DNA from: Macrostomum lignano | Lineage: Eukaryota | Assembly: GCA_002269645.1 (NCBI GenBank) | Contig: NIVC01000583.1 | Span: 1 to 64,000 of the forward strand | Direction of reading: 5' to 3' | Length of the DNA stretch: 64,000 nt | In this document: one piece after another, positions 22,069 through 41,870 of the stretch | How the letters are laid out: every line of letters starts with the position of its first letter | How positions within the stretch are numbered: position 1 is the stretch's first letter | Notes under the pieces: generated by a model | Told to the model about the DNA's origin: nothing | Database searches by the model: none | The model's input: the letters and a program-made list of their open reading frames with translations, nothing else | Position numbers and translations under genes: made by a program

Positions 22069-23385
22069 ATGCTTTCACGAGCCAAGAAGCTACTGCTACT
22101 GGCAATCGTAACGATACTGCAACATCATAGGCTGATCAGGCAAGGCTGCCGCCCTAGGCGATGCTGGCAGAGACCGAGTCATCAATGAAGAGAAGAGCTT
22201 GGCGAGTTTGCCGGATTGATCCCACATCTACAAGATAGAGACTCGGAGATGTAATTCAAGTATATGTGCATGTGCCCAGCTCGGTTTGAGCATCTGCTTT
22301 CACTGGTTGCAACCAAACTCTCCAGGCCATGTGCAAGAAGAGAGGCCATTCCGGCAGAGGAGAAGCTAATGATGATGCTTTGCTACCTGGCTTCGGGTTG
22401 CAGCCAAGCCGACGTGTTGTTTTGATTTGGCCAAGGACACTCTACTATGTCAGGGGTCATGTTCGAGACTGCAATTGCCATCTACGACAAGTTGACGTCA
22501 ACATGTCTAAAGTTTCCTGCATCTGCAGAAGAATGGAAAGCAATCGCTGGTGGATTCTGGGAAAAGTGGCATTTTCCGAACTGCCTCGGTGCAATTGACG
22601 GCAAGCATTTTAAGGTTCATTGTCCAAGAAACACCGGCTCCCAGTACTTCAATTACAAGCAACAGTTCAGCTCACTGGTACTCGCCATGTGCGATAGTAA
22701 CTACATCTTCACATACATAGAGAGTGGCAGCGCAGGGAGAGAAGGAGATGCTGGAGTCTTCTCACATTCAGCCTTGTATGCTGGATTGGAGTCTAGATTG
22801 GTGAAAGTCCTGGAGCCTTCCTGAATTTCTGGCAGTAGCCTTGTCATGCCATTTGCAATTGTCAGTGATGAGGCTTTCCCGCTGAAGAATTATCTCATGC
22901 GCCTGTTCCCGGGGTGCAGCGGAATGGTACCATTGGACTACAAGATGCAAGTGTTCAACTATCGGCTGTCTTGAGCAAGATGCACAATTGAGAATGCATT
23001 TGGAATCCTGGTGACTCACTGGCAACTCTTCCTGCAGCCTGTCATAGCAAGAATCGATCACGTTGAGGCCTTTATTCGGTGTGCATTTGTACTGCATAAC
23101 TTCATGCAAATAGAGGACAAGGCCAACATTACAGCAGCTCAGTCCTACATGCCACCTGGAAGTGTTGACCAGGAACTGCCCACCGGCCAGGTACAGGAGG
23201 GTTCATGGAAATCCACCGTGACAGGCAGCGTCAGGGTAATGCCAGCCCGGAATCTGGGTTGAAATCAAAGCAGCGCCTCCACTCGGGAGCAACAGATGCT
23301 GCTGAGGGACTTCTTCGTCAGCCCCAATGGTGCCATTCCATGGCAGAGTGCAATGATACATGTATCTACTGATGATAATCGATAA
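22069..23385 (+). pseudogene. Harbinger (DDE_Tnp_4/HARBI1-like) transposase pseudogene
   Basis: One frame from ATG 22069 with six in-frame stops and no frameshift. Motifs: FPNCLGAIDGKH, YFNYK, DAGVF, DEAFPL, FNYRLS.AR..IENAFG, LHNF, RDFF.SP.G.IPWQ. Confidence 0.92.
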
Positions 23386-23712: not shown

Positions 23713-24540
23713 CTAGGAGTCATTGGGAGGTGTGACCGTGGATATGATGGAGCCAAGCATGTCGTCGAAGGAAACTGATCCAGCAGTGGCATCAGCGGCA
23801 GGCTCAGTTTGGATGGCAATGCTTTGGGGCAGGCCGTGGAGTTGGATTATGAACAACTCGCTCCGCAGGTGTGCCATGGCATAGTCGCGCTCAATTTGCG
23901 TTGGAAGCCAATGGATGGCTTGTCCAATTGCTTGGCCAAAGGAGGCATATTTGTCCTCATCTTTTGTCAGTTGCTGAGTCAACTGGCTGAGGGCAGTATC
24001 CAGCTTTGATGCTTCTGTTGCAGTTGCCTTTCTGGCCTTCTTTGGCACACTTTCCGCAAACTCTCGCATTGACGCCTCACTGGGGTCAGTTGTTGCAGCC
24101 TGTGCCTCTGCTCGACTAGACTGTTGCGCCTCATCATTGACCGAGGTTGCCTGCTGAGAGGGTCCAGCAGATCTCACAGGTACAAGTTCTGGTGTGGGCG
24201 GAGGCACATTTGAGATAGTATCGCCAATGTATTTACACTTGTCCAGGAAGTTCATGCGACTGTATATTCCCAACCGCCTGGGAATAGGCTTGACCGCACT
24301 CCCACTCGGAAGCTTGCTTCCACGCCAGAAAACAAAGTAGTCACGCTTGAGACCTTGAAACCGTTTGAGGCACCAAGTTGCATCCTTGCCCAAAGTCTCA
24401 GCAATCTGATTCCATGCGCTGGTTTTTGCCTGCTGATCCTTGAATTTTCGGCTTGAGATGTTGTAGACAACTTCATGTTTGGCAACTTCATCTATCAGAG
24501 TTACATCCAACTTCGGAGTCTCGTGTGACAAGTCAGACAT
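23713..24540 (-). CDS. Harbinger ORF2: MADF/Myb-SANT-like DNA-binding protein, 275 aa, ORF intact
   Basis: LIDEVAKHEVVYN..S..FKD..AK..AW..IA..LG..C..RF..L...Y is a MADF pattern. It is convergent with the transposase, as in Harbinger two-gene elements. Confidence 0.88.
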   Translation of the reverse strand: MSDLSHETPKLDVTLIDEVAKHEVVYNISSRKFKDQQAKTSAWNQIAETLGKDATWCLKRFQGLKRDYFVFWRGSKLPSGSAVKPIPRRLGIYSRMNFLDKCKYIGDTISNVPPPTPELVPVRSAGPSQQATSVNDEAQQSSRAEAQAATTDPSEASMREFAESVPKKARKATATEASKLDTALSQLTQQLTKDEDKYASFGQAIGQAIHWLPTQIERDYAMAHLRSELFIIQLHGLPQSIAIQTEPAADATAGSVSFDDMLGSIISTVTPPNDS

Positions 24541-26548
24541 TTCCAGGTATCAAGTTGTGTGGAGTTTGGGGTGAAGAATAGAGCATGGTTCTATTCGTTT
24601 CATATAGCCTCCAGCTGTGCTCCTGTCTGGTTGCGCAAGAAATTGTCTGTACTCATTGTACAGTGAGCAGTGAGCAATGACAATTGTTTAAATTTACTGT
24701 ACGCCTACCCCTGCCATCCATGCTGCAGAAGCGGACAACTCAAGGCAAGGAGTTGTGAGTGCTTATGTGAATGGGGTGCATTTTGGTTTCGTTTGCCATG
24801 CATTAAATTGAAAGTTATATTGTCCTTTCTAGTTCTAATGAATAGAACCAAATAAAATCACTATTAGAGTCCGCTAGGAGCGGCGGACTTTTGGATAGTA
24901 GAGCTGCGCATGGATAGTAGCGTTCGTAATCAGCTGGTAGCGGCGGCGAACAGCTATTAGTTTGAAGCACTGAGCTATTTGCGGAAATGTGAACCAGGCT
25001 TAAGCTACTCAATTTGCCAGCAAGAACAATTTAGGGAAGCTTTTTGGGAACAAAAATCATAGATTCTTTATCAATTTCCCTTGAAAAATCAGGGAACTTT
25101 ATGCTTTGCAGAATAATCTTTTTTAATAGCAGTTTCTCCTGCAAGTAGGTTATCACAGCAAGGTAAAATTGCTTAAAGTGATAAATGAGTGGTTGATCTT
25201 TTTTATTGTCTTGCTACCTACGACAGTCTTGCTAGTACATAATGGCAGTACTAGACATAGGCAAGTATAGGCTTTGGTTTTTAAAGCCAACAGAGACAAA
25301 TTTCCTCTTAAGGGCAAATGGCTACATAAAATAAATAGTTATCAACTCTAGAAAGGCAATCAGCTTAGTATGCAATCAATAAATAAGAACTGTGCTGCTT
25401 TCTTGAAATGAGCTCTCAAAATGGCTAGCATTGTAGCAAGCTTCAGTGTGTAGATTCCAAAGCAGAGGCCTACACAAACTATTGTGTATAAGTCTTGAAA
25501 GGCAGCTTGGAGTCATTGTATGTGCTTCAAATCATCTGCAGACTCCAAAAGAAAAGCTGTCAAAAGAGCCAAGTATTTGAGTATTCACTCTAAATGGGGC
25601 AGTAGAATTAGTCATCTTAACTCAACATTCCACTTGAAAGCAAGCTGTGCCTTTATTACAGAACCTTGATTATTAGCTGGGTTTGCCTGGTGTGTATTTA
25701 TAGAAAAATTAATGGTGTTCTAGAAATTTCTTTAAGATAATAACACAAATACAGTATTATAATATATACTGTAATTAATAAGGGTAAATGCGTTGAATAA
25801 GAATATGGCTAATAATTAAAGTATAAGTTATGTAAAGTTTAAAGGTAGAAATATTTTGCTATAGAAATTTGCAGAAAAATGGGGAAATTTCTTTTACTTA
25901 ATTTGGAAATTTTACTCATAGAATGCGCAGAAAAAGGGAAATTTCTAGAAGCTAGGTACATTGGAATAACATTGCAACAATAGTCCCCCTTGCTAGAGAT
26001 GGAGTCTCAGGATAGAATGACGATTGCGCAGTATGTACAAATTAATGACTGAATGAGCTATATACACTAAAGATGTCAATGGTCAGGTCTAAAGCCTGTC
26101 ATGAAGGAGTAGCAGGATGCGATTATGATACAGATAAGGTCAAAATCAGACCTTATCTGTATCAAAAATGTCAGAAGTAATGGTAGTCATTGTGGGCTTT
26201 AAATTGAATGCATTATCCACTGCTTGATTAGGTCGTCGGCGCCTCCTTGTCAACTTTTGGTGTATTCGCTGTAGTGGATGTTGGTGTGGCCTCCATGTCG
26301 TCCTGGTGTCTGGCTGGTGTAGAGGTTTCCTCCTGCCCCAAAGTCAGCTATATGGACTGCCTAGGCCTGCTCTGTGTTGGTGGCCTTGGCGTCAACCTGC
26401 AGGGTTTGAGCCTGTCAATGGAGATGGCTTCTTTGTGGCCAGGGTGGGACTCAATGATGAAAAACTTGGGAGTGCGCCAAATGACTGGGTACAGTCTGGA
26501 GTATGGTGCTTCCAATGGCTTCCTCACCCTGTCCATATGGACCCAAAC

Positions 26549-28077
26549 CTAATCGGTCAACCATAGCTCCTGAGGCACATGTGGTGTGGTAGATAGCTTT
26601 CTTGGTCGCTGCTCCAAGAGGTGGTCCAAGCTCAGCTGAATGGAGTTAGGGTCTTTGTCACTGACAATAACCTGTGGAAGCATCAGATGCTCGCTAGTGA
26701 GCCTGGTAAATAGGCTGAGGCCTGAATCATCCAGAGCGACATGCATGGTGGGGAATGCCAATGGGAGGTTGTCAAGCCAAGCAAGACCGCACGCCTTAAG
26801 CATTGTCTTCAGAGTCCTGTGGGCGCTCTCAATCTTCCCGTTGCACTTTGGGTGGTACACTGTGGTGCGCAGATAGTGAAAACCCAGGGCGGACAAGAGT
26901 GTCTTGAAGAGCTCGGACTCAAACTGTGGTCCACTATCAGTGATGACATATAGGAGCACTTCGAAGCGAGAAATCCAGGAAGAGATGAAAGCTGCTCCTA
27001 TACTTTGTGCTGTGATGGTCTCGAATGGTGTGGCCTCTAGCCAGCCTGTGTTGCAGTCAATCATGGTAAGGAGATTTCGAGGTGTAAGACCGCACTGAGT
27101 ATCATGTTTCCTTTTGGGAACTGGAAAAGGGCCTACAATGTCGATGTGTACCATCTTGAACCTGTTGGATGGGAGGTTGAAGGCAGCGCTACTGGCCATC
27201 ATGTGGCGGTCTATCTTGGTGCACTGACAAACCTCGCAGGACCTGCAAAAGACCTTGATCTCTGCGCGTATGCTAGTCCAGTAGTAGCAGCTGATGATCA
27301 GGTTGGCAGTCCTGTGGAATCTGTAATGACCAAGTTCATGAAAATGTTTTAGCAGTGATTCACGCATGGAAATGGGGATGACTGGGCAAGGGTAACCTGT
27401 AGAGGTCTCGCAGAGTATGTGACAGCTGTCTCCAAGTAGAAAGAAGTGGCGATGGTCTGATTTGGAAAGGTGTTCGGCAGCTTGCTGATCAGCAATTGCT
27501 GACAAGTCAGTTGACACTGCACCCTGCTTGTTGGCTACAATGGCAGTCGGCTTGTTGAGTCTGGAAAGTGCATCAGCAACAGCATTGTCTGAGCCACAGA
27601 TATATTGAAAGTCAGTGACATACTCAGACAGGATGTTCATGTAGCGCTAGTTGTGGTTGGAGTTGCCATGGGAGTTGTGCCGGAATGCCTGCTTGTGATC
27701 CATGAAGACCGTGACATGCCTGCCCTCGATCAGGTTCCAGAAGTGAAGCACAGCAAGGTAAGTGGCTAGTAGCTCTCGATCAAATGCTGAATAGGCTCGC
27801 TAGGTGGCAGAGAGCTTCTTACTGAACATGCCGATCAAGGTGGTCTGTTCTCCGATTGTCTGATGCGATGCAGCTCTGACGCTGGTAGCAGAAACATCTG
27901 TGACCATCTGATAGGCCGAGCAGTCTGGATCGGGGTGGTATAGCAGGAGACGCTCGGCGAGCTTCTTCTTGAGGTTGTTGAATGTGGCTTGGTGGATGTC
28001 GCTCCATTGGTAGGATCGAGGAGACCGTAGTGCTGCAGTGAGCAGATCCTGCAATGGGGCTACAGCAGATGCAAAAC
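26549..28077 (-). pseudogene. RNase H and integrase remnants of the outer Gypsy element
   Basis: NAVADALSR, zinc-binding HELGH..C..CEVC, VHIDIVGP, VITDSGPQFES, TTVYHPKCNG.IE..HRTLK. Confidence 0.9.
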
Positions 28078-28081
28078 CGGA

Positions 28082-29063
28082 TGTAGAGAACTGTAAATTA
28101 TAACAAAACGCACTACTTAAAGTAATATTCTAACTAAATCAATTTAAACTCGCAATCTATTTTTAGAATGAGTCATATTTATTTTTAGAAATTCTATTTT
28201 TAGAATGAGTCACATGCAAACAGAAGTGACTCAGAGCCCTACGTAGGACCGACGTTTATTTGATCAAGAAACCGGTTCTCGTGAGTTTTATTTGCTTAAT
28301 TCCATATATGGTAATGATCAAACATTCATGACCTCCTAATCAAACATACGTGACCTAAGTAAATAACCGATTTTGAACCAGTTTTTCACCAACATTTTAC
28401 TATAAATATAAGCGAAAATCCGAGTCAAAAATTCAGACTCGGAGCGGTCTCAAGAAAGACTTTGGAATACGTTAACCAAAGAAGACTCATCTCTGAGAGA
28501 AGAAATCCGGATAGATTGGTAAGCGTTTACCCGAATTAGTTAATTGTTACTAGCGCTAATAAGTTAATTAATTGAATTTACGAGAGCCACTTTTGTCGAC
28601 ACATTTGAGAAAGGCCTCCTTGTTTCCTAGGATACATTCCTAGAGGATTTATTGATTTGAATTGAGTTACCCGTTACGTTTCGGACGTAACGAAGAAGAC
28701 GCCCTTCAGGAGGACCTATTACAGACAGTTAGAGAATTCAATTGTTCATAAGGGCGCACGTGTACGTTCTATTGTTCATTCCGAGCTCGAGGACCGTCAA
28801 GAATTCTGATTCGCTCTCGTGTTGGTCGACCCACAGATAAAGTTAAGGACTCCAAGAAACAACAGTTGTTCACCGGAACCGGCCGCCGCCCAGCTCAGCC
28901 AAGTCAGACAGCGCTGCCCACTACAAGAACCAGACGTCTACAAACCACTAGAGGATCCGCCGCAGTAAGTTATCCGACTTGTAGATACCTAGGCACTTGT
29001 TCCCCAGTGTCTAGAAGTGGGAGTTTATTGAGTGACTGATCACCACTCAATATAAACTCTTCA
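28082..29063 (+). repeat. 5' LTR of the nested element
   Basis: Direct repeat of 38602-39583; TATA-like TATAAAT at 28401. Confidence 0.97.
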
Positions 29064-29515
29064 ACTGGTGATCTCGCCCAGGCTCCAGGCCTAACTCAGG
29101 CTCAATCTGAGGCCTATTCTAGGCACGTCAGGCTAATTCAAGCCAGACCAGGCGGGACTGCTAAAAACACCTGGACAAAAATTAAATTTTTTTTATTGCG
29201 TAACCCTACTGAATTTTTCGTGCCGCCCTACGATTGTTTGCATATAGACTCTTTGATTCACCGCATACCGTTTGCACCACTCAGCTGTTAAATTTTGTGA
29301 ATATCTCATTTCAATCACCCCCTTTCTCTTTGGTAAAGGCGTTATATAGAAAAATTTTCCCCTTGCCTTTTTCGCTTCCTCCTGAGTAAATAACAGCCGC
29401 GCGTGCACACACACACACATACACACACACTTGCTCACCACTTTGAGAGGTCAATCTGGAAAATCCTTTGGAAATTGACCCCAATCTTGACTTGCTGCCA
29501 TTTCCATTTGGAAAT

Positions 29516-32500
29516 ATGGCTCGAAGAAACCCTACAGTGCATCGCGATGTCAAGGAAACTGTTGGAATGTATACTATGGATAAGGATTTTAACACCTTCA
29601 TTGAACACTTTGACCTTGTAACTCGCGAATACGGATTACAAAATCCAGAAAAGGCACTTCTTCTTCCTCCACTGCTAGAAGGCACTGCCAGAGAAATTTA
29701 TGGCAAACTAAATGCTGCTGCTCAGCAAGACTATCATACCTTAGTTACGCAACTAAGAACACAATTCGCCAGATGTGGAACCAATCGATCTGTGCTTCTA
29801 CACAAACTTCATAATCGAAAAATGAGTCCGACGGAATCCTTCCTTACTTTCGTCGATGACGTCCGCAAAATTATTAAAGCGTTGCACCAACCACCACCGC
29901 CGAACCCAGGAGCTCAACCTATCGGACCAGCAGAACTAGCTGCAAGAGAAAGACAACGTCTTGCTGATCAAGAACAAAGCCTAATCCTCCATGTCATTAA
30001 TAATGCTCAACCTTCCCTGCGAGACAGGTTGTTAAGAGAAACCATTGAGACAGAAGAACAACTAATTCGTTGCGGCATGCAATGGGAAGCAAGTGCCCCA
30101 CTGCTAACTTCTCGTAGTAGTGATACAACACAATTGGCAGAACAATTAAGCAAGCTGATGCAGCAACACCAAACTTCTGCGATCATGCTACAGCGACAGA
30201 GATACACTTCGCCACCCACTTGCTACACCTGTGGAAGAATTGGTCATTACGCCAGAGACTGCCGATCACGTGGCAATCCAAGACAATATTACGACAACAG
30301 AAGAAAAATTTGGACTCGTCCTCAAAATCGCAATTGGAACCCACCACAGAATAGACAAGGAAATGCCTTGGTGCCTTACCGACAACAGAGAAATCCTCCT
30401 CCTCCAAGACAGCCTACTCAGGTCCGCAGACAATATGCTCAAGCTATTGAGCCGGAATACACCCAAGTCATTGAACCAGAGTTTAAGATAGAAGACCTTA
30501 TGCCGGATTTCACAATCAATGTCCTTGAGGAGTTTGAAAAACGAAAGGATAGCACAAGCAGCGAAAGTAGCTGCATGATGGATTCTCTGTTAGAAGAAGA
30601 TCCACCCATTCCTACCTCTTCCAAAGCAAGTCCAGTCTTCCGAGAAAACAAAAGACAACAACAAGCTACTCCTAAGCAACAAAGCAATTTATTTAAAGTT
30701 CCGACGATCAATAATCTTTCGGAAACTCACAGAGAGAACGAGTCCCAGGATCTTAAAGAAATACCAACACTCGAAGAAGACAGAGACCCAGCAACTTTTC
30801 AAAACATATTTGAAGAAAGCGTTGACATGTTGCAGATCCTAGTCGATGATATAGACCTGTCAGAAACACCTCCAACACAGGAACCAGACTATGAAAATAT
30901 TGTCTCCCCTCGTCCAGCCCAAGAACATTGGAGACATGACAAGGCCACGAACACTGAATCAAGCCATTTGACACACGAAAAGTTCGCACAGACAGAGGAT
31001 GACACTTATGTTTCCATGAACATAGATAACGAAAGCGACTATGATGACCCGATAACAATAATGGAACCGGCTAACAATCCAACTTTTAACAATAAAACCA
31101 CACATCTTACCGATGTATCGAAACCAGGCGAATTTACTCGTCCGATGTGGCAAGCGCAGCTACCTACACCATTACCATGCTCCAACAAGTGGCACTTTTC
31201 GACTCGCCTTACTCCTCCGCCGTATCCTGAAGATAGTCATGACGAGATTGAAGACACTCCACCAGTACCAACAAGACGAAAGAAAAAACATCCGCTACTG
31301 CAATGCTTCCTCACGATCTTGATGATGGCAATTGTTCCCACGGTACTGCCGTCTCCATCTCCAATGATCTGTCCCACTGATGGAGACATCCAGCCAGTCA
31401 TTTACAAGATTCCTACGGAAATCAAATGCAGTTACTTTAAGACAAACCAAACCAAGCCGCTACCACTAACTATCGAAATATACAAGGCAAATACAAAGAA
31501 GCATCGACAAATGGGAATTGTGTGCTTCAGAGATAAGGATGAAATTGAAAAGGTTTGGCTAGTACAATGGAACCGAATCAGATACTGGCAAACTTCGATG
31601 ATGGTATCACATGAGGAATGTCTTCAATGGAACCAAACCTTGTTTTCTAAGGATGGCGAATTAAAACTCCATGAGACGTCCGCCAGTGGAGCACAACTAT
31701 TCCGCACGAATAACGTAGCCTATGGAAGATACGTCCATTATCATCAAGCGCAATGGCCTGCATACACAGTCTACAACAGCTACCTCATCCGAAATGTCTT
31801 ATTCTACCACAATCCATTTGACAACATGGAATCCATGCAGCTACCACTTGACCAGTGTCACTACAGCTCAGGATATTGTGCTACCTCTAACTACAACAAA
31901 GAAGAAGCTCAAAATTTACCCCTAGCACCGACTTATTTCCACGACTATCGATACCAAATTGAATACAGATCGGATTCCCGCTATGAGGAGCCTAGCCGAA
32001 CCCGCAAATATTTCATTGCATGGGAAGTTAAAACTGAAATTGACTGCAAGCTACAAAAATATCACACTGTTAAAGGAAAATTGCTATCTAACACCTTCCT
32101 TGCCGACTCAGGAGATCTCGCTCTTACATTTCCTAAGCAACCAAGCTACACACACTTGAAATGTAAAGACAAGGACGAGCAACTAATCCTCTCCGACCAA
32201 GAAATCCCAATCGTGCTTAAGGATATGGATAAGAATGTGTTCCTGAAAGTAGTAAATGGAACCTATCCGAGAGAAGATATTACAGAACGACATAAGCGAG
32301 ACCTACCGAAGCCTTCCCTAGTGTCAGCACGACTTTTGGCAGCAAAACTAGCCGCTATGGAACATAAGCTGCACAAGCAACTGAACTATTTACACCGATC
32401 TATGGTCAAACTGACATGCCGAATGCATGAAACCAGTCTAAATTACGCAAGACAGAACTATTATGTCAATCCCACGACGACCTTCAGGAAAATCACAGGG

Positions 32501-35500
32501 ATTGAAAACGTCTTGGCAATTCCGGTTTACGGATATTTGTTAATCTACAAGTGCACACCGATCCAACATTTCAACATTTTGCCAGCAAATACGACAACAA
32601 CCTGCTACGATAAACCTCGAATTGAAGCATTTTTCAATGGAAGGCGAATCCGAGGATTTCTGGACACTGTCCACAATATCATCGTTGGAACTGCCATTCC
32701 AAGACCATGTACCAACGCAGCCAACTACTTCAATTTAAACGATCTACTTCACCAGATTTCATCGGCAGGCAATATAAAGAATATCTCAAACTCGCAAGCT
32801 ATTATAGACGAGACATATGAAATATCGGACCTTCAAGTAAAATTTAACAAAACGATGTACAAACCTTTTGGAGATGTTAAGCTGGACGAAATTACCCCAG
32901 GATGGACTATCAACGATTTCCTGCAAGTCTTCATTTCACAACGACAGGTCCTAACAAAACTGTTCACGAAACGACAGCAACGAGATCCAAATCGACCTAC
33001 ATCTCCGATAGGAATGACTATGCACAATGCCATTCAATCGTTTTGGTCGAATAGCTTTCTAGACCTAATACAAGGGCGAGGAAGCCTATACCAAGGTTTT
33101 CTTTTCTCCAGCGCTTGCATTGTATGGATCCACCTAGCGCTACTCATTCTTGTCACAGTAGCCCGATGCGCAGCAAGAAATTGTCCACAAACTCGAGGCA
33201 TCTTTCAAATAATCAAACAAACAGAAACTACCACTACAGGAGAAGAACCAACCGAGGAAACACCTATGCAAGTTCAAGAAATTAGACCAGAACCTAACGC
33301 ACCAGAAACTTCAAACATTTATCCCAGAATCGAATTTAAGCCAGCAATTCCTCCGCAAATGCCGCCTCCACTACCAACCGACCCAAAATGGCCAGCTAAT
33401 TACGTCTGCACTCTCCAAGCCAACATGGGAAGAGCAATGGCTCAAGTACTTGTCAACAACACGCCCAGCAAAGCACTACTTGATTCCGGAAGTTCCATTA
33501 CAGTCATCACCAGGAGACTGTATGATAAGCTACAACTTCGAATGCGACCATCATCCATCGCTGTTGCTGGAGCAGGTGGACACGCGCTTAATATCCTTGG
33601 ACAAGTTGGGATTATGCTCAAGCTGGCAAATAAACAACTTCCTGTTCAAGCGTTTGTTATTGACCACCTCCCAAGTCAAGATGTTATCATTGGAATCGAC
33701 ACATTTCGACAACTGAATCTACCGTTGACATTTGACTTCAACAAACAGACATTCAAACTGGACAATGTAGAACACCCTTTGGTCAGCCAGGTCCATCTCC
33801 AACCTAAAGTTCATCTGCGACAAGATGTCTTCATACAGCCACAAAGCACTTGTTGGGTTAAGGCACATTTGGCAAGTAACGAAGATGTTGAAGAAGCTAT
33901 GATTTTCGAACCAAGAAAGAAACTACTAACAACAAAGGAAGTTCTAATTCCAACAGCATTGGTTCTTATTAACTCAGAAAAAACAATTCCGGTACAGATT
34001 GTCAACCCTCACCAACATCCCGTTAAGATCTACGCGAAAACCTGCATTGGATATCTTAATACACAAGCCTCCGTTATGCTTATCCAACATACGACAACAA
34101 GGATGTCAAAGCAACAGTTCTTGAAACAAATTGATCTCTCGCAAAGTCCAATCACGGAAGGACAAAAAACACAGGTCAGAGATCTACTTTGGAAGTACAA
34201 TGACGTCTTCTGTCATCATGATTACGACATTGGTCGCGCTCGTGACATCAAGCAGAAAATCGAACTACTACCCCACCAGGAACCCATCCAATGCAAACCA
34301 TACCCAGTCGCAAAACATCTGCAGCAACATTTCGATGAAATCATCGAGAAAATGCTCAAGGCCGGAATCATCAAAAGAACAGTTTCGGCATATTCATCAC
34401 CGTGTCTACTAGTTGAAAAGAAGGAAACAAATGAAAGACGACTTGTCTGTGACTTTCGAGTCTTAAATAAATACATCCCCACAGACCAACAAAGTCTACC
34501 AAAGATTTCGGAACTATTGGCACGACTGAACACAGCTACCCTCTTCACCGTATTTGATCTGAGACATGGCTTCTGGCAAATTGAACTTGAAGAAGAATCA
34601 AAACAATACACAGCATTCAAGACTTACAAGGGAGAAGTCTTCGCCTATCAGAGAAGCCCAATGGGGATTTCCAACTCCCCAGCAACCATGAGCCGCTTAA
34701 CAGCCTACATGCTAGCGGGATGTACGAACCTACTGCATTACGTAGACGATATCCTCGCCTTCGGAGATAATTTCGAACAACTACTGAACGTCATGGAACA
34801 AGCTCTCTCACTCCTTCAAAAACAAGGCCTAAAACTACAACCTACAAAGTGCAAATTCTGCAGAGACTCAGTCCGATATCTAGGACATCATGTCTCCGCA
34901 AGAGGAATTTCACCTGACCCTAATAACGTCGAAAAGGTCAAGAAGTTCCCCAAGCCTACAACACTTACAAAACTACAATCATTCCTTGGATTAGCACAGT
35001 ACTTCAGAAAATTCCTACCAAACTTCGCGCAAACCGCAAAGCCATTATATGAGTTGTTGAAGTTTCCCAAATGGAAGGAAGAAAATTGGAAAACGGAACA
35101 GCAAAACAGTTTTGATAAAATTAAACAGCAACTAACCAGCGACGCTCTGCTCAAACATCCAGACTTCCAAAAACCTTTTATTATCGAAACAGACGCATCA
35201 GGAAGTGGCTTAGGAGCTGTACTACTTCAAGAAACAGACCAGAAAAAGGAAAAACCAGTTGCTTTCATCAGCCGAGCCCTACGGCCGAACGAAACAAAAT
35301 GGTCAGCCACCGAACGTGAACTACTAGCGATCTTATTCGCCCTTCGACAGTTTCATTACTACATATACGGATCACCGCTACCAACCATCATCCGCACAGA
35401 CCACGCACCGCTGACTCATGTCGTCAAAACAAAAGGACAAACGAATAACAGACTTATTCGAATGGTCCTCAAAATTCAGGACTACAACTTTCATCTTGTC

Positions 35501-36955
35501 TACAAACCAGGACCTACAAACAAGGCCGCGGATGCGCTATCAAGAGCATATGAAGTCAATGCGGTTCACCCCATCCCGACAATGACGGATCTACTGAAAG
35601 CACAACAAGAAGATAATTTCTACCAAGCTGTACTCGATGACACAGAAGAAACCGAAAAATCGCTCACCAAGATCGAAAAGAAATTTTTACGGAAGCAAAG
35701 CAACAATCTCATCTTCAAAGAACTAGCACTTTACTGGTTGCACAACAATACTCCAAGATTGTACCTACCATACAACTATCGTGCTACAATCTTACACGAA
35801 CTACACGACACACCTCTAGCCGGACACCTATCCGCCAAAAAAACAATTCACAGGATAGCCCAGTTTTACTTCTGGCCAACAATGAATGCAGACATCCGCA
35901 AGTACTGTCTACAATGCCACTCATGCGCCTCGACAAAGACTGGAAGAAGACAAAAACCGGAACTTCAATCCGTACCAAAAACGACTACATGGGACACGTT
36001 ATCACTTGATATTACCGGACCACTACCACCAGCTCGACAACATGCTATCGATTACACTTATATCCTCACGGCACTAGACGTGTTTTCTAAATTTGCTGTT
36101 GCCATCCCACTACCTGACATCACAGCCACTACCGTTGCTATGGCCTTCTACAATGAAATCATCTGCAAATACGGAACTCCAAAGACCTTAACCTCCGACA
36201 ATGGTACGCAATTTACGTCGCAACTATTCCAACAAGCGGCTAAACTACTAAACATCCAACAAATTTTCACCTCCACCTACAATCCAAAAGCGAACCTAGT
36301 AGAACGATTCCATAGAAATCTACACGAAATGTTGACACACTTCGTCTATAAGCAGCCTGAAGATTGGATCATATATCTACAGTCAGTAACAATGGCCTAC
36401 AACAGCGCAGTGCACCGCTCAACAGAGAACACACCATTCTTCCTTATGTTCTCTCGAGACTTCCAGCCACCAAGCTTACTAGTTCAAAAACTACTACCTT
36501 CTCAGTACGTGGACAAGCCAACAACACTGCAAAAGTTTACTTCACAGCTTCACCTGGCATGGCAAATCGCGAAACACAATTTAGAAAATCAACAGGCAGT
36601 CGCCACCACAAGCAATCATGCATCTACTCTACAAGTAGGAGACATCGTTTACCTACATTATCCTGCGCAACACACGCATAAGCACGCCTTTAAATACAAA
36701 GGACCATTCCGAGTAACGGCACTAGTATCGGCAACAACGGCACGTCTTGCTAATATCCAGGATCCGCATCAGGCTCAATTCTATGTTCACATTCAACGCC
36801 TAAAACGTATCACCAACGACACTACGTTTCTTCCAGAACTACAAAATCCAGATCACACAAAAACAGCAAGCAAACACATTGCTACAGCACATGCCGAAAC
36901 ACAAACAACAAACGCACCACCTATCGGCCATACGTACAATCTAAGACCCCGTTAA
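29516..36955 (+). CDS. Single Gag-Env-Pol polyprotein (2479 aa from the first ATG; the frame is open from 29468)
   Basis: CCHC knuckle CYTCGRIGHYARDC (~30220); hydrophobic signal-like segment (~31290); RHKR (32288); TM segment (~33090-33160); protease LLDSGS (~33475); RT YVDD (~34740); RNase H IETDASGSGLGAVL; integrase HELH..H..C..CHSC, LDITGP, SDNG.QF and GPF motif. Confidence 0.95.
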   Translation: MARRNPTVHRDVKETVGMYTMDKDFNTFIEHFDLVTREYGLQNPEKALLLPPLLEGTAREIYGKLNAAAQQDYHTLVTQLRTQFARCGTNRSVLLHKLHNRKMSPTESFLTFVDDVRKIIKALHQPPPPNPGAQPIGPAELAARERQRLADQEQSLILHVINNAQPSLRDRLLRETIETEEQLIRCGMQWEASAPLLTSRSSDTTQLAEQLSKLMQQHQTSAIMLQRQRYTSPPTCYTCGRIGHYARDCRSRGNPRQYYDNRRKIWTRPQNRNWNPPQNRQGNALVPYRQQRNPPPPRQPTQVRRQYAQAIEPEYTQVIEPEFKIEDLMPDFTINVLEEFEKRKDSTSSESSCMMDSLLEEDPPIPTSSKASPVFRENKRQQQATPKQQSNLFKVPTINNLSETHRENESQDLKEIPTLEEDRDPATFQNIFEESVDMLQILVDDIDLSETPPTQEPDYENIVSPRPAQEHWRHDKATNTESSHLTHEKFAQTEDDTYVSMNIDNESDYDDPITIMEPANNPTFNNKTTHLTDVSKPGEFTRPMWQAQLPTPLPCSNKWHFSTRLTPPPYPEDSHDEIEDTPPVPTRRKKKHPLLQCFLTILMMAIVPTVLPSPSPMICPTDGDIQPVIYKIPTEIKCSYFKTNQTKPLPLTIEIYKANTKKHRQMGIVCFRDKDEIEKVWLVQWNRIRYWQTSMMVSHEECLQWNQTLFSKDGELKLHETSASGAQLFRTNNVAYGRYVHYHQAQWPAYTVYNSYLIRNVLFYHNPFDNMESMQLPLDQCHYSSGYCATSNYNKEEAQNLPLAPTYFHDYRYQIEYRSDSRYEEPSRTRKYFIAWEVKTEIDCKLQKYHTVKGKLLSNTFLADSGDLALTFPKQPSYTHLKCKDKDEQLILSDQEIPIVLKDMDKNVFLKVVNGTYPREDITERHKRDLPKPSLVSARLLAAKLAAMEHKLHKQLNYLHRSMVKLTCRMHETSLNYARQNYYVNPTTTFRKITGIENVLAIPVYGYLLIYKCTPIQHFNILPANTTTTCYDKPRIEAFFNGRRIRGFLDTVHNIIVGTAIPRPCTNAANYFNLNDLLHQISSAGNIKNISNSQAIIDETYEISDLQVKFNKTMYKPFGDVKLDEITPGWTINDFLQVFISQRQVLTKLFTKRQQRDPNRPTSPIGMTMHNAIQSFWSNSFLDLIQGRGSLYQGFLFSSACIVWIHLALLILVTVARCAARNCPQTRGIFQIIKQTETTTTGEEPTEETPMQVQEIRPEPNAPETSNIYPRIEFKPAIPPQMPPPLPTDPKWPANYVCTLQANMGRAMAQVLVNNTPSKALLDSGSSITVITRRLYDKLQLRMRPSSIAVAGAGGHALNILGQVGIMLKLANKQLPVQAFVIDHLPSQDVIIGIDTFRQLNLPLTFDFNKQTFKLDNVEHPLVSQVHLQPKVHLRQDVFIQPQSTCWVKAHLASNEDVEEAMIFEPRKKLLTTKEVLIPTALVLINSEKTIPVQIVNPHQHPVKIYAKTCIGYLNTQASVMLIQHTTTRMSKQQFLKQIDLSQSPITEGQKTQVRDLLWKYNDVFCHHDYDIGRARDIKQKIELLPHQEPIQCKPYPVAKHLQQHFDEIIEKMLKAGIIKRTVSAYSSPCLLVEKKETNERRLVCDFRVLNKYIPTDQQSLPKISELLARLNTATLFTVFDLRHGFWQIELEEESKQYTAFKTYKGEVFAYQRSPMGISNSPATMSRLTAYMLAGCTNLLHYVDDILAFGDNFEQLLNVMEQALSLLQKQGLKLQPTKCKFCRDSVRYLGHHVSARGISPDPNNVEKVKKFPKPTTLTKLQSFLGLAQYFRKFLPNFAQTAKPLYELLKFPKWKEENWKTEQQNSFDKIKQQLTSDALLKHPDFQKPFIIETDASGSGLGAVLLQETDQKKEKPVAFISRALRPNETKWSATERELLAILFALRQFHYYIYGSPLPTIIRTDHAPLTHVVKTKGQTNNRLIRMVLKIQDYNFHLVYKPGPTNKAADALSRAYEVNAVHPIPTMTDLLKAQQEDNFYQAVLDDTEETEKSLTKIEKKFLRKQSNNLIFKELALYWLHNNTPRLYLPYNYRATILHELHDTPLAGHLSAKKTIHRIAQFYFWPTMNADIRKYCLQCHSCASTKTGRRQKPELQSVPKTTTWDTLSLDITGPLPPARQHAIDYTYILTALDVFSKFAVAIPLPDITATTVAMAFYNEIICKYGTPKTLTSDNGTQFTSQLFQQAAKLLNIQQIFTSTYNPKANLVERFHRNLHEMLTHFVYKQPEDWIIYLQSVTMAYNSAVHRSTENTPFFLMFSRDFQPPSLLVQKLLPSQYVDKPTTLQKFTSQLHLAWQIAKHNLENQQAVATTSNHASTLQVGDIVYLHYPAQHTHKHAFKYKGPFRVTALVSATTARLANIQDPHQAQFYVHIQRLKRITNDTTFLPELQNPDHTKTASKHIATAHAETQTTNAPPIGHTYNLRPR

Positions 36956-37085
36956 AAATTTTCGCTTTTGTTCCCCGTGTAGTGACCGGGATAAAGAATA
37001 GCACTACAGCTTCTTCAAGCTTGTCGTAAGAGGCGACTAAACCTGTTTTTCTACGAGCGTTCACGTAACTTCTAGAAACGCCACC

Positions 37086-37736
37086 ATGGACTGCCCGATT
37101 TGTCTCGAAGACTTTTTATGTAAACTACCTTGTATATGTGTCAATAAACATCAGGTTTGTGGTTCTTGCTTAAGCTTTGCACATTACAAAAAACCTTTTA
37201 AAACTTGCCCTGTATGTAGGGGTAACCTCCGTCAATGCATAATATGCAATTCATGGCGCACTGAACAATATTGCCTAAATCAACATTTTATATGCGCGCA
37301 ATGTATCAAGAAACTTGCTTCTCGCTCCCTCTGCCAATGTCCCATATGCGATGCCACCCCTCTCCCTAAAGTTAACAACAAACTTGCATGTATTCAAGCA
37401 AACTATAAACTGCAGCTTCACCCATTCACTTATGCTCTTTTTCCATCAAATGCGATAATTATACGCCTCAGAGCATGGCCCATACCACGTATTGCTCATA
37501 AAACACGTAAATACCTTGTACGCTATTCATCTCTCTATGGTTTTAGCCTCCGACAATTATCTCCAGAAGAAATTGAACATAAACTGTTTAAAATAGTTAC
37601 GGATAAGGCTCTACATCCATGTCCGATCCTCTGTACAGTTCTACCTGCACTTATTCTGCGTAATGACGACTTATCTTACATATTACCACCCCAAGAATCG
37701 TATCAGTATATTAGTTCCGAATCAGAAAATAATTAA
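37086..37736 (+). CDS. Accessory ORF A: tandem double RING-finger (C3HC4-like) protein, 216 aa
   Basis: CPIC..C...H..C..C..CPVC immediately followed by CIIC..C...H..C..C..CPIC. The ATG sits in a GCCACCATGG Kozak context. Confidence 0.88.
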   Translation: MDCPICLEDFLCKLPCICVNKHQVCGSCLSFAHYKKPFKTCPVCRGNLRQCIICNSWRTEQYCLNQHFICAQCIKKLASRSLCQCPICDATPLPKVNNKLACIQANYKLQLHPFTYALFPSNAIIIRLRAWPIPRIAHKTRKYLVRYSSLYGFSLRQLSPEEIEHKLFKIVTDKALHPCPILCTVLPALILRNDDLSYILPPQESYQYISSESENN

Positions 37737-37752
37737 TATCTTGCCCACAGAT

Positions 37753-38349
37753 ATGGAAGACTGCCCGATATGCCTCGACACCAAGCCGTATATGGTGCCT
37801 ACGTGCGCATGGGGCCATCTGGTCTGCAACGACTGTGGCGAAAGAGAGGAAATTACACGATGTCCACTCTGTCGACAAGACAGGGTGTGGTGTATCGTTT
37901 GCGGCGACCTCCCCCAACTCCAATTGTGCACCCAAGGCCATTGGAGTTGCGTTTCTTGTGCCGAAACAATCGCACGCCGCGACATTCGGCACTGCCTAGA
38001 GTGCGGTTGGGCAATGACAACCACAACGCTAGACTACACGCATAGAATACCAGTCGTTCCGGAAACCCAGCTCCACACGGAACAAATAGCCACAATGTCC
38101 ACAGCTGACCTGACGTGGGCCATCCGGACATGGCCCGTGACCTTACGCCAAGTCGTCTTCCGTGACAGACTGCTAGAAATGGGCCGCAACATCACGGTGG
38201 ACACTACAATCACCACCGACGTGGCAGCCTATCTCACCATCCTCGACAGGACAGAAGATACAGGCTACACACCACTTCAGTTCCTATACTGGCCAATGGT
38301 CACCTTAATAATGCGGCTAAAGGCCATGCTAAGGCATGCCTTCGAGTAA
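37753..38349 (+). CDS. Accessory ORF B: tandem double RING-finger protein, 198 aa (likely start MEDCPIC)
   Basis: CPIC..C.WGH..C..C..CPLC followed by CIVC..C.QGH..C..C..CLEC. AG acceptor CCCACAG lies 2 nt before the ATG. Confidence 0.88.
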   Translation: MEDCPICLDTKPYMVPTCAWGHLVCNDCGEREEITRCPLCRQDRVWCIVCGDLPQLQLCTQGHWSCVSCAETIARRDIRHCLECGWAMTTTTLDYTHRIPVVPETQLHTEQIATMSTADLTWAIRTWPVTLRQVVFRDRLLEMGRNITVDTTITTDVAAYLTILDRTEDTGYTPLQFLYWPMVTLIMRLKAMLRHAFE

Positions 38350-38601
38350 CAAATAATTTATAACCCTTACTCTAACACGCTTAACTCGACGCGAACGCAT
38401 CGTACTAAATTAATTTGGTAATGGGTTTTTCCAAGCTAATGTCGCAATTATGATATGTACATTCCGTTCTTGCTCTATAAATACTTACATATTTATTCCA
38501 CATCATTACTATGAATTCATTCTCATTTCTGTCATTAAAACCATAATTTTATTATTCCAACTTTAAATTCGGGACGAATTTTTTGTAACCATGGGAGATA
38601 T

Positions 38602-39583
38602 TGTAGAGAACTGTAAATTATAACAAAACGCACTACTTAAAGTAATATTCTAACTAAATCAATTTAAACTCGCAATCTATTTTTAGAATGAGTCATATTT
38701 ATTTTTAGAAATTCTATTTTTAGAATGAGTCACATGCAAACAGAAGTGACTCAGAGCCCTACGTAGGACCGACGTTTATTTGATCAAGAAACCGGTTCTC
38801 GTGAGTTTTATTTGCTTAATTCCATATATGGTAATGATCAAACATTCATGACCTCCTAATCAAACATACGTGACCTAAGTAAATAACCGATTTTGAACCA
38901 GTTTTTCACCAACATTTTACTATAAATATAAGCGAAAATCCGAGTCAAAAATTCAGACTCGGAGCGGTCTCAAGAAAGACTTTGGAATACGTTAACCAAA
39001 GAAGACTCATCTCTGAGAGAAGAAATCCGGATAGATTGGTAAGCGTTTACCCGAATTAGTTAATTGTTACTAGCGCTAATAAGTTAATTAATTGAATTTA
39101 CGAGAGCCACTTTTGTCGACACATTTGAGAAAGGCCTCCTTGTTTCCTAGGATACATTCCTAGAGGATTTATTGATTTGAATTGAGTTACCCGTTACGTT
39201 TCGGACGTAACGAAGAAGACGCCCTTCAGGAGGACCTATTACAGACAGTTAGAGAATTCAATTGTTCATAAGGGCGCACGTGTACGTTCTATTGTTCATT
39301 CCGAGCTCGAGGACCGTCAAGAATTCTGATTCGCTCTCGTGTTGGTCGACCCACAGATAAAGTTAAGGACTCCAAGAAACAACAGTTGTTCACCGGAACC
39401 GGCCGCCGCCCAGCTCAGCCAAGTCAGACAGCGCTGCCCACTACAAGAACCAGACGTCTACAAACCACTAGAGGATCCGCCGCAGTAAGTTATCCGACTT
39501 GTAGATACCTAGGCACTTGTTCCCCAGTGTCTAGAAGTGGGAGTTTATTGAGTGACTGATCACCACTCAATATAAACTCTTCA
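38602..39583 (+). repeat. 3' LTR of the nested element
   Basis: Same length as the 5' LTR; no mismatch found by eye. Confidence 0.97.
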
Positions 39584-41870
39584 CGGAGATGAAACATCCA
39601 TAGAAACCGATCACACAATTCACACCAAGGAAATGTTGCAGGGCAGCAGTGTTGTGAGGAACTGGCCAGTTTTTGATGGTATTGACTCTCATTTTAAGAG
39701 GTCGGATTCCATTGGAGGAAACATGATGGCTGAGAAAGGTGACTACACTCCTAAGGAAAACATTTGCTGAGCTGAACCTTTAAGCTATGGTGAGCGAGTC
39801 GGGTCAACATGGCTTCTAGGTGTTAGAGATGCTCTTCCTCCGACCTCGAGTAGACCAGAAGGTCATCCAAGTAGGTGATGATGCAAGATAGGCCACGCAG
39901 GACAGAGTCGATGAAGCACTAGAAGGTCTGCGTGGCATTGCAAAGTCGAAAGGGCATCCTAGTCCACTCAAAAAGGCCAAATGGTGTGATGATAGCAGTC
40001 TTGGCGATATCCTTTTCTGCAATGGGGATCTGATGGTAAGCGCGAACCAGATCAAGCTTGCTGAACATTTTTGCGCCATGGAGATAATGAGTGAAACTCT
40101 GGATATGTGGGACCAGGTAACTGTCTGGCTTGGTAGTGCTGTTTAGCACTCAATAGTTGCCACATGGTTGCCATTTGCCAGATGGCTTCCTGTCTAATTT
40201 CTTTGGAACCATGTGGCAAAGAGGCGAAGCCCATGAACTCTTAGATGGATGGATGTACCCTGCATCGATGAGTTGCTAGAATTCATTAGGAGCAATGTGA
40301 AGTTTCTCCAGATAAAGCTGATGCGCTCTGGCGTGCACTGGCTGATGTCTGCCAGTGTTGATCCTATGAACAGTGTCATGCTTGATCACATCCACTGGTG
40401 GTAGCCGACCTCCCTCTACATAGATAAAGACCCTGAAATCGGCCGATCAGCCGCCTGACGCGTGGATTGCAGTCTTTATGGTAGTTCAGAGTGACGTTGA
40501 AGTTGCCGATGGTTGTCGTAGTGACAGGCAGCAGTGGAGTATGGAATGCAGTTGTTGGATCTACCAGCTGGCAAGCTTTGCAGTCGACCAAGAGACCAAA
40601 ATGTGACAGAAAATCGTAGCCAAGGATAGGGTGAACAATGGAGGCCACTATAAAAGTCCATCGATAGGCGCGGTGCAGTCCTTTAATGACAACCTCCAGG
40701 GAGATTACGCCTACAACAGGAATGGTCTCATCTTTGGCAATGGTTAATCGGAATCCTGTTGCTTGGACATTTTGGGATAAGTACTGTGGTAGGATGATAT
40801 AGACACTGCAGCGCCAATATCAACCAGGAACAGTCGGCGACACACATTGAAGAGGAGGTTGACGATAAGACAAGACTTGCACGCCGCTTTGTCTGTGGCA
40901 CTGCTAATTACGGCGTCATGGGTAGTGCCTAGAAGTTTCCTTGGGCCAGATATTCTGGCAAGTTCAAGCGGGATTGCACCAGAGTCCTTTTGTTGGGACC
41001 TATGATGCAAGGCTGGCAACCACTAGATGAGCGCGGGAACTGGCACCAGCATCTACATGTGTGTGTTTGTGCACCATAGTATAGATGTCCTCTGCAGACT
41101 ACTGGTTTTTGGCCTGGGTAGAAGGGCTCCATGCTAGATGTCAGCTGGGACTTCTGCCATGGCCCCAGTGTCTTTGAGTTACCTGCTGCACTCTGAACTG
41201 CATGGACATGGTGGCCAGATGACTGCTGGATAGCCAGCATGGAGTCCACAATGGAAGCAAGCCATGCTGGATCTTTGTCTTGGAAACTGGACAGATGAAG
41301 GTGTAGCTCTGCTGGGAGGCAGCGAAGAAGTGTGGCCTTGACCATGTCTGGGTTCTCCTTGATGTTGCACTATGCCATCTTGGCCTGCAGCCACTGTATG
41401 GTGCTGGGTTTGTCTCTTCCCAGGTCAGAGATGCTCATGACCTCATTAATTTGCTCCTGCTGACTCTTCTGAAGCATCTTCAGTATGACTTGCTTCAATG
41501 TGGTATAGTTGGCTGGAGTGTCCACAGACAATAAAACAGCTGCAATATCCTCTGGTAGATGACAGATCAGGTGGTTGAACTGCATTACCTCGGATGTGAT
41601 GTTTTGAAGGTTGAACTGAGCATCCAACATCCAAAACTATGCATCGGGGTTGCCACAAAAGAATGGTGGTACCTTAAGGGCTACCACAGCTACCGTGGGC
41701 TGGTTGACAGGTGCTGCCGCGACACTCATTCCTTGTGTAGGCAACGTGGCAGGTGCAGGCGTACCCCCGGAGGGCTGTTGGCTGACCACTGATGGTGTGT
41801 TGGTGTTTCCTTCCGCTATTGGATCGTACACATTGAATGAATTGAATGCTCTGAATGAAATACTAGTCAA
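39584..41870 (-). pseudogene. gag-PR-RT remnants of the outer Gypsy element
   Basis: Fragments in several frames with stops and frameshifts (ORFs 41637..41870, 41370..41630, 40929..41345, 40744..41019, 40376..40648, 39919..40149). Confidence 0.88.

Follow-up and report, generated by a model that had tools for sequence, protein, structure and literature searches.

Envelope (Env) proteins related to herpes simplex virus (HSV) glycoprotein B (gB) have been described as widespread in Ty3/gypsy elements by Chary and Hayashi (PMC13524379), with the order GAG-ENV-POL reported from Nematoda, Bryozoa and Platyhelminthes and the nematode elements credited to Sacco et al. 2022. A weak gB similarity is given for the env of the Ascaris element Tas in PMC9094657, in agreement with what an earlier note on the present DNA had stated, and the same paper describes Atlas virus as encoding one Gag-Pol-Env polyprotein. 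Tas, Atlas virus and mosquito BEL/Pao elements with a chuvirus-like glycoprotein (G) are invertebrate long terminal repeat (LTR) elements carrying non-retroviral fusogens, as is the element described here, which lies in a 64,000-nt stretch of Macrostomum lignano DNA (contig NIVC01000583.1, positions 1 to 64,000; the window). Atlas virus, a belpaovirus, ends its polyprotein with a class II Env, whereas the window element belongs to Ty3/gypsy and has Env in the middle. We consider the region under study to be the envelope of a recently inserted, intact Ty3/gypsy GAG-ENV-POL endogenous retrovirus and to be a gB-like class III fusogen, with a probability of roughly 0.85. In common with the HSV/gB-type GAG-ENV-POL errantiviruses of PMC13524379, the window element has a Ty3/gypsy pol, this gene order and a gB-type Env with signal and transmembrane (TM) segments, and is multicopy and intact; it also shares the 12-nt primer site GCGAGATCACCA with Mlig_errantivirus_2, a flatworm element listed there with ENV_HSV and 16 copies. 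The window family may already be catalogued, the likeness to Mlig_errantivirus_2 being known from primer site and listing alone. Its Env is a further member of the published group and no new route to infectivity, so that the independent route proposed in the earlier note is not supported, both because gB-type GAG-ENV-POL gypsy elements were already published and because the Env and reverse transcriptase (RT) trees share their main split. Beyond the published group are two double-RING open reading frames (ORFs) after pol and a conserved pseudoknot.

The element occupies positions 28082-39583 on the forward strand, as do all features below unless otherwise stated, and comprises an LTR pair, a target duplication, a primer site and an open polyprotein frame. 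The 5' LTR (28082-29063, 982 nt, TG...CA) and the 3' LTR (38602-39583, 982 nt) showed 0 mismatches over 982 nt on direct comparison, the target-site duplication CGGA is found at 28078-28081 and 39584-39587, and the 20-nt primer-binding site (29066-29085) is a perfect complement of host tRNA-Val(AAC) plus CCA; the element inserted very recently. LTRs, primer site, target duplication and the order protease (PR)-RT-RNase H (RH)-integrase (IN) are those of Ty3/gypsy (Metaviridae), and no Pao-type gag or protease domain (BEL/Pao, Belpaoviridae) was among the 15 Pfam families found in the scan. A single Gag-Env-Pol ORF runs from 29447 to 36955 (2502 aa stop to stop, first Met at 29516) and is ordered Gag-Env-PR-RT-RH-IN. 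Its Gag region (29516-30271) carries a CCHC knuckle at 30221-30262 (Pfam zf-CCHC, E 3.8e-06), with no Pfam capsid match in the window copy, and its Pol region (33443-36955; protease, RT with YVDD, RNase H and integrase in Ty3/gypsy order) matched Asp_protease_2, RVT_1, RT_RNaseH, Integrase_H2C2 and rve above cut-off. Env has no ORF of its own, being the in-frame segment 31289-33175 between gag and protease. It begins with a predicted internal signal sequence (31289-31351, residues 615-635) preceded by a basic RRKKKH stretch, and a hydrophobic stretch at this position was also present in the family copies and distant homologues inspected. The ectodomain (31352-33085; 578 aa, 12 Cys, 6 N-glycosylation sequons) and a TM anchor (33092-33175, residues about 1216-1243, hydropathy up to 2.47) follow; signal, luminal ectodomain and C-terminal TM segment are assigned by hydropathy alone. 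A furin-type site, RHKR, lies at 32288-32299 (residue 948), with R-x-K/R-R at the corresponding place in 11 loci reported out of 30 loci. LLAAKL (residue 963, position 32333), NPTTTF (1008, 32468), CYDKPR (1053, 32603) and PRPC (1085, 32699) come after it, and every motif quoted in the earlier note was found in the ORF where that note had placed it. A PPxY late domain was rejected as a conserved feature, PPPY occurring in P0001 and L031 and PPxY in 0 of 6 subfamily B ORFs.

The fold of this Env is class III and gB-type, as judged by profile comparison and by a predicted structure. When solved chains in the PDB were searched with the single sequence no gB was retrieved, only one unrelated match (E 0.28), and in a Pfam scan of the window protein the sole fusogen family matched was PF24664 Monjiviricetes_fusion, at 23.8 bits and thus under its gathering cut-off of 27, with no match to PF00606 (herpesvirus gB) at E up to 1. 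A word-index protein search gave 1 relative of Env and an exhaustive one 77 (E up to 0.001); among the 41 of these scanned with Pfam, PF24664 was matched in 22 (9 above cut-off) and PF00606 in 4 (0 above cut-off). A profile was made from 82 aligned sequences, comprising the window ectodomain, 9 genome copies and 72 of the 77 relatives (P0003, P0048, P0055, P0064 and P0071 excluded). Because this profile matched Epstein-Barr virus (EBV) gB (3fvc) at E 3.6e-20, the parallel with gB goes beyond chance, and the gB domain III-IV patterns which the earlier note had drawn on, proposing a profile check, are borne out by the alignment. Herpes gB made up 45 of the 55 matches listed; the remaining 10 were weak, with no E better than 0.067, and included 9 proteases aligned via flanking columns. 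The NPT, C, CY..P, G.L and C positions were in register with gB, together with an N-terminal cysteine pair, and six Env cysteines aligned with EBV gB cysteines, any bonds being suggested by register only.

An AlphaFold model of the ectodomain (mean predicted local distance difference test, pLDDT, 77.8; predicted template modelling score, pTM, 0.53) was rich in beta strands over its long N-terminal half and contained a helix of 47 residues, equivalent to the central helix of domain III (32327-32467, ectodomain residues 326-372). Foldseek against the PDB returned herpes gB in all 32 among the matches listed (best E 4.1e-19, TM-score about 0.40-0.44). With VIA-align six gB chains led at Z 11.7 to 7.7, HSV gB giving Z 11.7 over 405 aligned residues (root mean square deviation, rmsd, 7.8) and pseudorabies virus (PRV) gB domain IV giving Z 11.2 over 163 (rmsd 3.2), followed by Chandipura G (6.8), Bourbon (5.9), Thogoto (5.6) and GP64 (4.6); many pleckstrin homology (PH) domains matched ectodomain residues 28-307. 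The model thus presents the predicted features of class III, with PH domains, an elongated fusion domain, a long central helix and a beta-rich domain IV. Two aromatic loops are placed at hairpin tips by the secondary structure of the model alone and may act as fusion loops: candidate loop 1 (31553-31576) has an aromatic tip between model strands 51-70 and 73-83, and candidate loop 2 (31721-31765) is a Tyr/His/Trp-rich loop ahead of model strand 137-153. Herpes gB being best among solved structures, and not class I or II, the structural comparison agrees with the earlier note, as do its placing of a class III fusogen in a Gypsy-order element, given the Ty3/gypsy domain order and LTRs, and its distinction from the baculovirus-F type, since PF12259 (baculovirus F and insect errantivirus Env) had no Pfam match and the model is class III rather than class I. 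A trimer model scored 0.36 against 0.00 for the best control, in a calibration where 21 of 30 paired chains and none of the 23 single ones reached the mark, with contacts at 321-362 on the central helix; its pLDDT was only 32, the score may reflect memory of gB, at least 29% of contacts agreed between runs, and little weight is given to it. Herpesvirus gB (PF00606; PDB 3fvc, 2gum, 9cu4) and the window Env therefore share fold, central helix, domain IV, cysteine register and a furin site before domain III, but differ in that identity is 11-14%, PF00606 is not matched and the window Env comes from inside a retroelement polyprotein. No counterpart of gH/gL, the partner of herpes gB, is encoded in the window element, and the window Env offers an intact, selected, multicopy case for asking whether gB-type retroelement envelopes fuse without herpes helper proteins.

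Ratios of non-synonymous to synonymous change (dN/dS) were calculated pairwise by the Nei-Gojobori method with the ectodomain split into two halves. The halves gave 0.14 and 0.06 against family copy L031 and 0.05 and 0.04 against L004. The Gag-Env linker gave 0.40 against L031, and Gag had a value of 0.05. Against subfamily B synonymous sites were saturated, Env identity being 63-64% and linker identity 25-28%. Judged by these substitution ratios, purifying selection acts on the ectodomain. Env has at least 70 matches in the genome, 11 of them within open frames of 2461 aa or more. Among the 77 Env relatives, gag or CCHC lies upstream in the same protein in 31, PR or pol downstream in 21, both in 12 and either in 40; none has an upstream RT, RH or IN matching the window element, and the remaining 37 include many fragments. 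By Pfam one relative departs from this pattern, P0003, in which an RNase H match lies upstream in what is apparently a fused gene model. Among named protein relatives the nearest is P0004, at 28% identity, which its source calls a flatworm protein; P0012 is called a nematode protein. Trees of RT and Env for the 10 elements having both, which include only homologues found here, agree in their main split and fully support a clade of P0001, subfamily B and P0004; each tree has two open forks and the Env tree carries a long-branch warning. These results fit long co-inheritance better than fresh capture.

'gB-type' is the name of a fold and not of a source, and by score both gB and RNA-virus G are candidate donors. 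Among the predicted viral structures of BFVD the best matches were Nyavirus G (E 1.1e-23), Beihai rhabdo-like virus 3 G (1.3e-22) and the best gB (1.0e-21), with chuvirus, orinovirus and entomopoxvirus proteins close behind. In the ESM Atlas, Monjiviricetes/rhabdovirus G clusters took ranks 1-4 and gB ranked 28th, at low recognition value. A herpes donor is not established because nyamivirus-like G ties with gB among predicted viral structures; the captured-fusogen claim of the earlier note accordingly stands as regards the gB-like fold and does not stand as regards a herpesvirus donor, nyamivirus and rhabdo-like G scoring equal or better. The stronger reading of that note, a recent and independent capture of Env from a herpesvirus within this lineage, draws on herpes gB being the best solved match by profile, Foldseek and VIA-align. 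Solved class III structures are, however, mostly herpes gB, and in BFVD the E values of the two RNA-virus glycoproteins are one to two orders of magnitude below that of the best gB. In addition, all 77 sequence relatives, 40 with retroelement domains, are 22-64% identical and far closer than any viral protein, and the RT and Env trees share the clade noted above, subject to the same long-branch warning. A recent herpesvirus capture is already largely refuted by these data and we regard it as highly improbable.

A different origin, compatible with an endogenous retrovirus bearing a gB-like class III Env, would trace the Env lineage back to the G of an ancient RNA virus with a negative-strand genome (Nyamiviridae/Monjiviricetes-like), not to the gB of a DNA virus. 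PF24664 as the sole fusogen family matched by the window protein, Atlas ranks 1-4 and BFVD ranks 1-2 speak for it, and the Monjiviricetes, Nyamiviridae and chuvirus glycoproteins (PF24664), which are of similar length, provide the best Pfam, Atlas and BFVD matches; the window Env nevertheless falls under the family cut-off (23.8 versus 27 bits) at 10-16% identity. For nematode elements of GAG-ENV-POL order, capture of an RNA-virus glycoprotein is reportedly claimed by Sacco et al. 2022, going by the title in a reference list. Set against such an origin are the near-tied scores at 12-16% identity, the differing conformations of the models (TM-score 0.28 for Nyavirus) and the direction of transfer, which at such distance is beyond the reach of tests. 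PMC13524379 refrained from inferring a global tree. The odds of an RNA-virus origin appear about evenly balanced.

Under established signal-anchor topology rules and class III biology a course of events may be proposed for the polyprotein. Translation would start in the cytosol with Gag, which the basic RRKKKH stretch would keep there, whereupon the basic-then-hydrophobic segment 610-635 would thread the ectodomain into the lumen of the endoplasmic reticulum (ER). Signal peptidase would free the ectodomain N-terminus and leave Gag membrane-anchored, and the TM segment at 1216-1243 would stop transfer, such that PR-RT-RH-IN would be cytosolic and tethered to Env until cut by the viral protease. 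Env would trimerise via the central helix, a furin-type protease would cleave it at RHKR, and in response to a trigger, probably low pH, the two aromatic loops would insert and the protein would refold to a post-fusion hairpin. From the topology of Env in the polyprotein it would follow that particles assemble on secretory membranes and that passage between cells may be possible. The window Env is also a case for asking how an envelope embedded midway in a Gag-Pol polyprotein undergoes processing.

Several observations weigh against reading the region as a gB-like envelope of a functional retrovirus. No fusogen family of Pfam is matched by the window protein above its cut-off, the protein shares only 11-14% identity with gB, the full-length TM-score is about 0.4 and pTM is 0.53, and the C-terminal 90 residues of the ectodomain model are of low confidence. 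One ORF implies 1:1:1 synthesis of Gag, Env and Pol unless other controls exist, and an Env-only or Gag-only splice was absent among 15 of 31 joints in putative RNA contigs. Fusion, cleavage and particle formation are predicted from topology and class III biology. What is observed directly is a single ORF, the domain order, purifying selection and a multicopy family, together with the gB-like fold of the model.

Internally deleted, LTR-flanked copies bear on the function of Env. Loci L049 and L050 (G000:C301 and C525) have an in-frame loss of 4413 nt and keep both RING ORFs; the resulting 1031-aa ORF joins Gag, the N-terminal half of Env and an integrase tail, and is without domains III-V, TM segment and most of pol. 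Six matches, namely these two and four more (two inspected), end at Env query residue 349 with identical scores. The corresponding 32326-36740 joint was also found in contigs of sequencing runs X2 and X3, which are only guessed to be RNA, and splicing as its source was ruled out by GC..CG ends and the presence of genomic copies. The deleted form is a candidate non-autonomous or interfering element that may yield a soluble Env fragment. The protein could accordingly have a class III fold and yet be unused for extracellular infection, acting instead in cell-to-cell transfer, in tethering assembly to membranes or in interfering with related viruses; the 1031-aa form favours this, LTR-flanked copies and putative RNA contigs together implying that a fusion-less Env fragment is able to spread. 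As full-length copies keep the furin site, the TM segment and strong purifying selection on both ectodomain halves, we think such a use unlikely.

In the window element the usual env slot after pol is occupied by RING accessory genes. RING1 (37086-37736, 216 aa) has two Cys/His fingers and a helical tail, with weak Pfam RING matches, and RING2 (37753-38349, 198 aa) matched Pfam Sina_RING at E 2.3e-06, just under the cut-off. The finger ligands of both were invariant in 8 of 8 aligned proteins, the ORFs recur in pairs or triplets across the family, and dN/dS was 0.10-0.29 in the four unsaturated comparisons of six. In the RING2 model (pLDDT 92.8) the first finger scored Z 4.7-5.3 against RING domains, with 44-45 residues superposed at an rmsd of about 1.9, these being look-alikes for the first finger alone. 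The RING2 fold gave no BFVD match at E 0.001 and no PDB match at Z 8 or more, its helical tail finding generic bundles; a word-index protein search gave no relative among 47 candidates, and Atlas scores of 0.83 or lower offer a lead only. Read-through or frameshifting from pol into RING1 was ruled out for the window copy, where frames differ and stops follow.

A GT..AG joint connects the LTR at 28964 to 37751, two bases ahead of the RING2 ATG, using a splice donor in the 5' LTR (CA/GTAAGT, between 28964 and 28965) and an acceptor between 37750 and 37751. Contigs of X1 (depth 47.4) and X2 (depth 14.7), runs belonging to two studies, contained it, and those of X3 and X15 did not; X1 and X2 are only guessed to be RNA, the short side of the joint is 30 letters at a likeness setting of 90, and back-splicing from the 3' LTR would give an identical picture. 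No ATG occurs in 28430-28964, and the ATG is preceded by CAG, at a distance of 0-2 nt, in 14 of the 15 RING ORFs inspected in second position as against 0 of 12 first-type ones. A genomic fusion of LTR and RING2 was ruled out as the source of the joint for this assembly, the acceptor being kept upstream in 6 of 6 close RING2 copies. Production of RING2 from a spliced LTR-to-RING2 mRNA is supported. As far as 37754 the window copy and L031 share about 91% identity; beyond this point identity is 38% for RING2 (aa) and 78% for the LTR; this drop relative to L031 and L032 (window 37737-38601) suggests recombination at the RING2 acceptor.

Upstream of RING1 lies a conserved intergenic RNA of 64 nt (36974-37037) that can be drawn as an H-type pseudoknot and two hairpins and is kept across subfamilies whose synonymous sites are saturated. 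The alignment held 17 rows, 3 of 20 variants having been excluded (one decayed copy with CpG-type changes and two near-duplicates), and the structure was drawn by eye from these same sequences. Of its cells 96.4% were paired, compared with 34-41% in slid controls, and two pseudoknot pairs had changes on both sides. The observed value was reached by 0 of 500 shuffles for cells paired and for covariation score, and by 283 of 500 for the count of covarying pairs. Since the 17 rows fall into about three groups, compensatory change amounts to two or three events. Rfam gave no match for 36974-37037 beyond a chance hit, and folding without pseudoknots was unremarkable (z -0.41). RING1 is probably made via this pseudoknot RNA.

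Non-Env ORFs in the env position are also known from Cer1, whose CERV is made from spliced mRNA (PMC10309623), and from rotifer elements with ORF3s (PMC5408684). In the available text neither is a RING protein, RING being absent from PMC5408684 and 'ring' in PMC10309623 denoting ring-shaped oligomers or ring channels; the words RING, accessory, zinc finger and polyprotein do not occur in the main text of PMC13524379, whereas the window element carries RING ORFs. A literature search, with most subscription journals outside its coverage, found no description of RING ORFs or such pseudoknot RNA in LTR elements. We tentatively picture a 'complex' invertebrate retrovirus, on the whole a less than even prospect, in which Env moved into Gag-Pol and two or three double-RING accessory proteins took the spliced env slot, one expressed via spliced mRNA and one via the pseudoknot, which might act as an internal ribosome entry site (IRES) or nuclease block. 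The RING proteins might be viral ubiquitin ligases directed against host defence or trimming surplus Pol and Env, and by analogy with arenavirus Z the first RING of subfamily B could be a membrane or budding factor. If this is true, accessory genes of a retrovirus-like kind, together with expression routes of their own, occur in an invertebrate gypsy lineage, hinting at a host defence or assembly step not yet known.

In subfamily B the first RING ORF starts MGNA(L/Q)S (L034, L036, L046, L092-L096, L103 and L104; MGKALS in L094), which is a myristoylation-like start; the window copy is without this extension. A further subfamily (L052, L088, L090, L091) has three RING ORFs after pol, and its variant of the pseudoknot could form a competing CACAG/CTGTG hairpin. 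Many family copies lie close together on G000:C87, C272, C1130, C1405, C2121 and C4009, possibly as silencing clusters or nested insertions, and an LTR search of G000 gave 43 matches of 80-100% identity, mostly on contigs with no listed Env match, which suggests many solo LTRs. The site of insertion is an older, broken gypsy-like element on the minus strand (26549-28081 and 39584-40142), with integrase-, RNase H- and RT-like pieces by reading. Elsewhere in the window there is presumably a Harbinger-like transposase piece at 22426-22824 (+), facing what by its motifs we assume to be a MADF-like ORF at 23713-24549 (-), and a 552-aa ORF at 44655-46310 (-) with a presumed THAP-like zinc finger at its start is probably a DNA transposase. 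Nested inverted repeats at 61435-63447, with arms of up to 221 nt that are 100% complementary, resemble foldback elements or miniature inverted-repeat transposable elements (MITEs).

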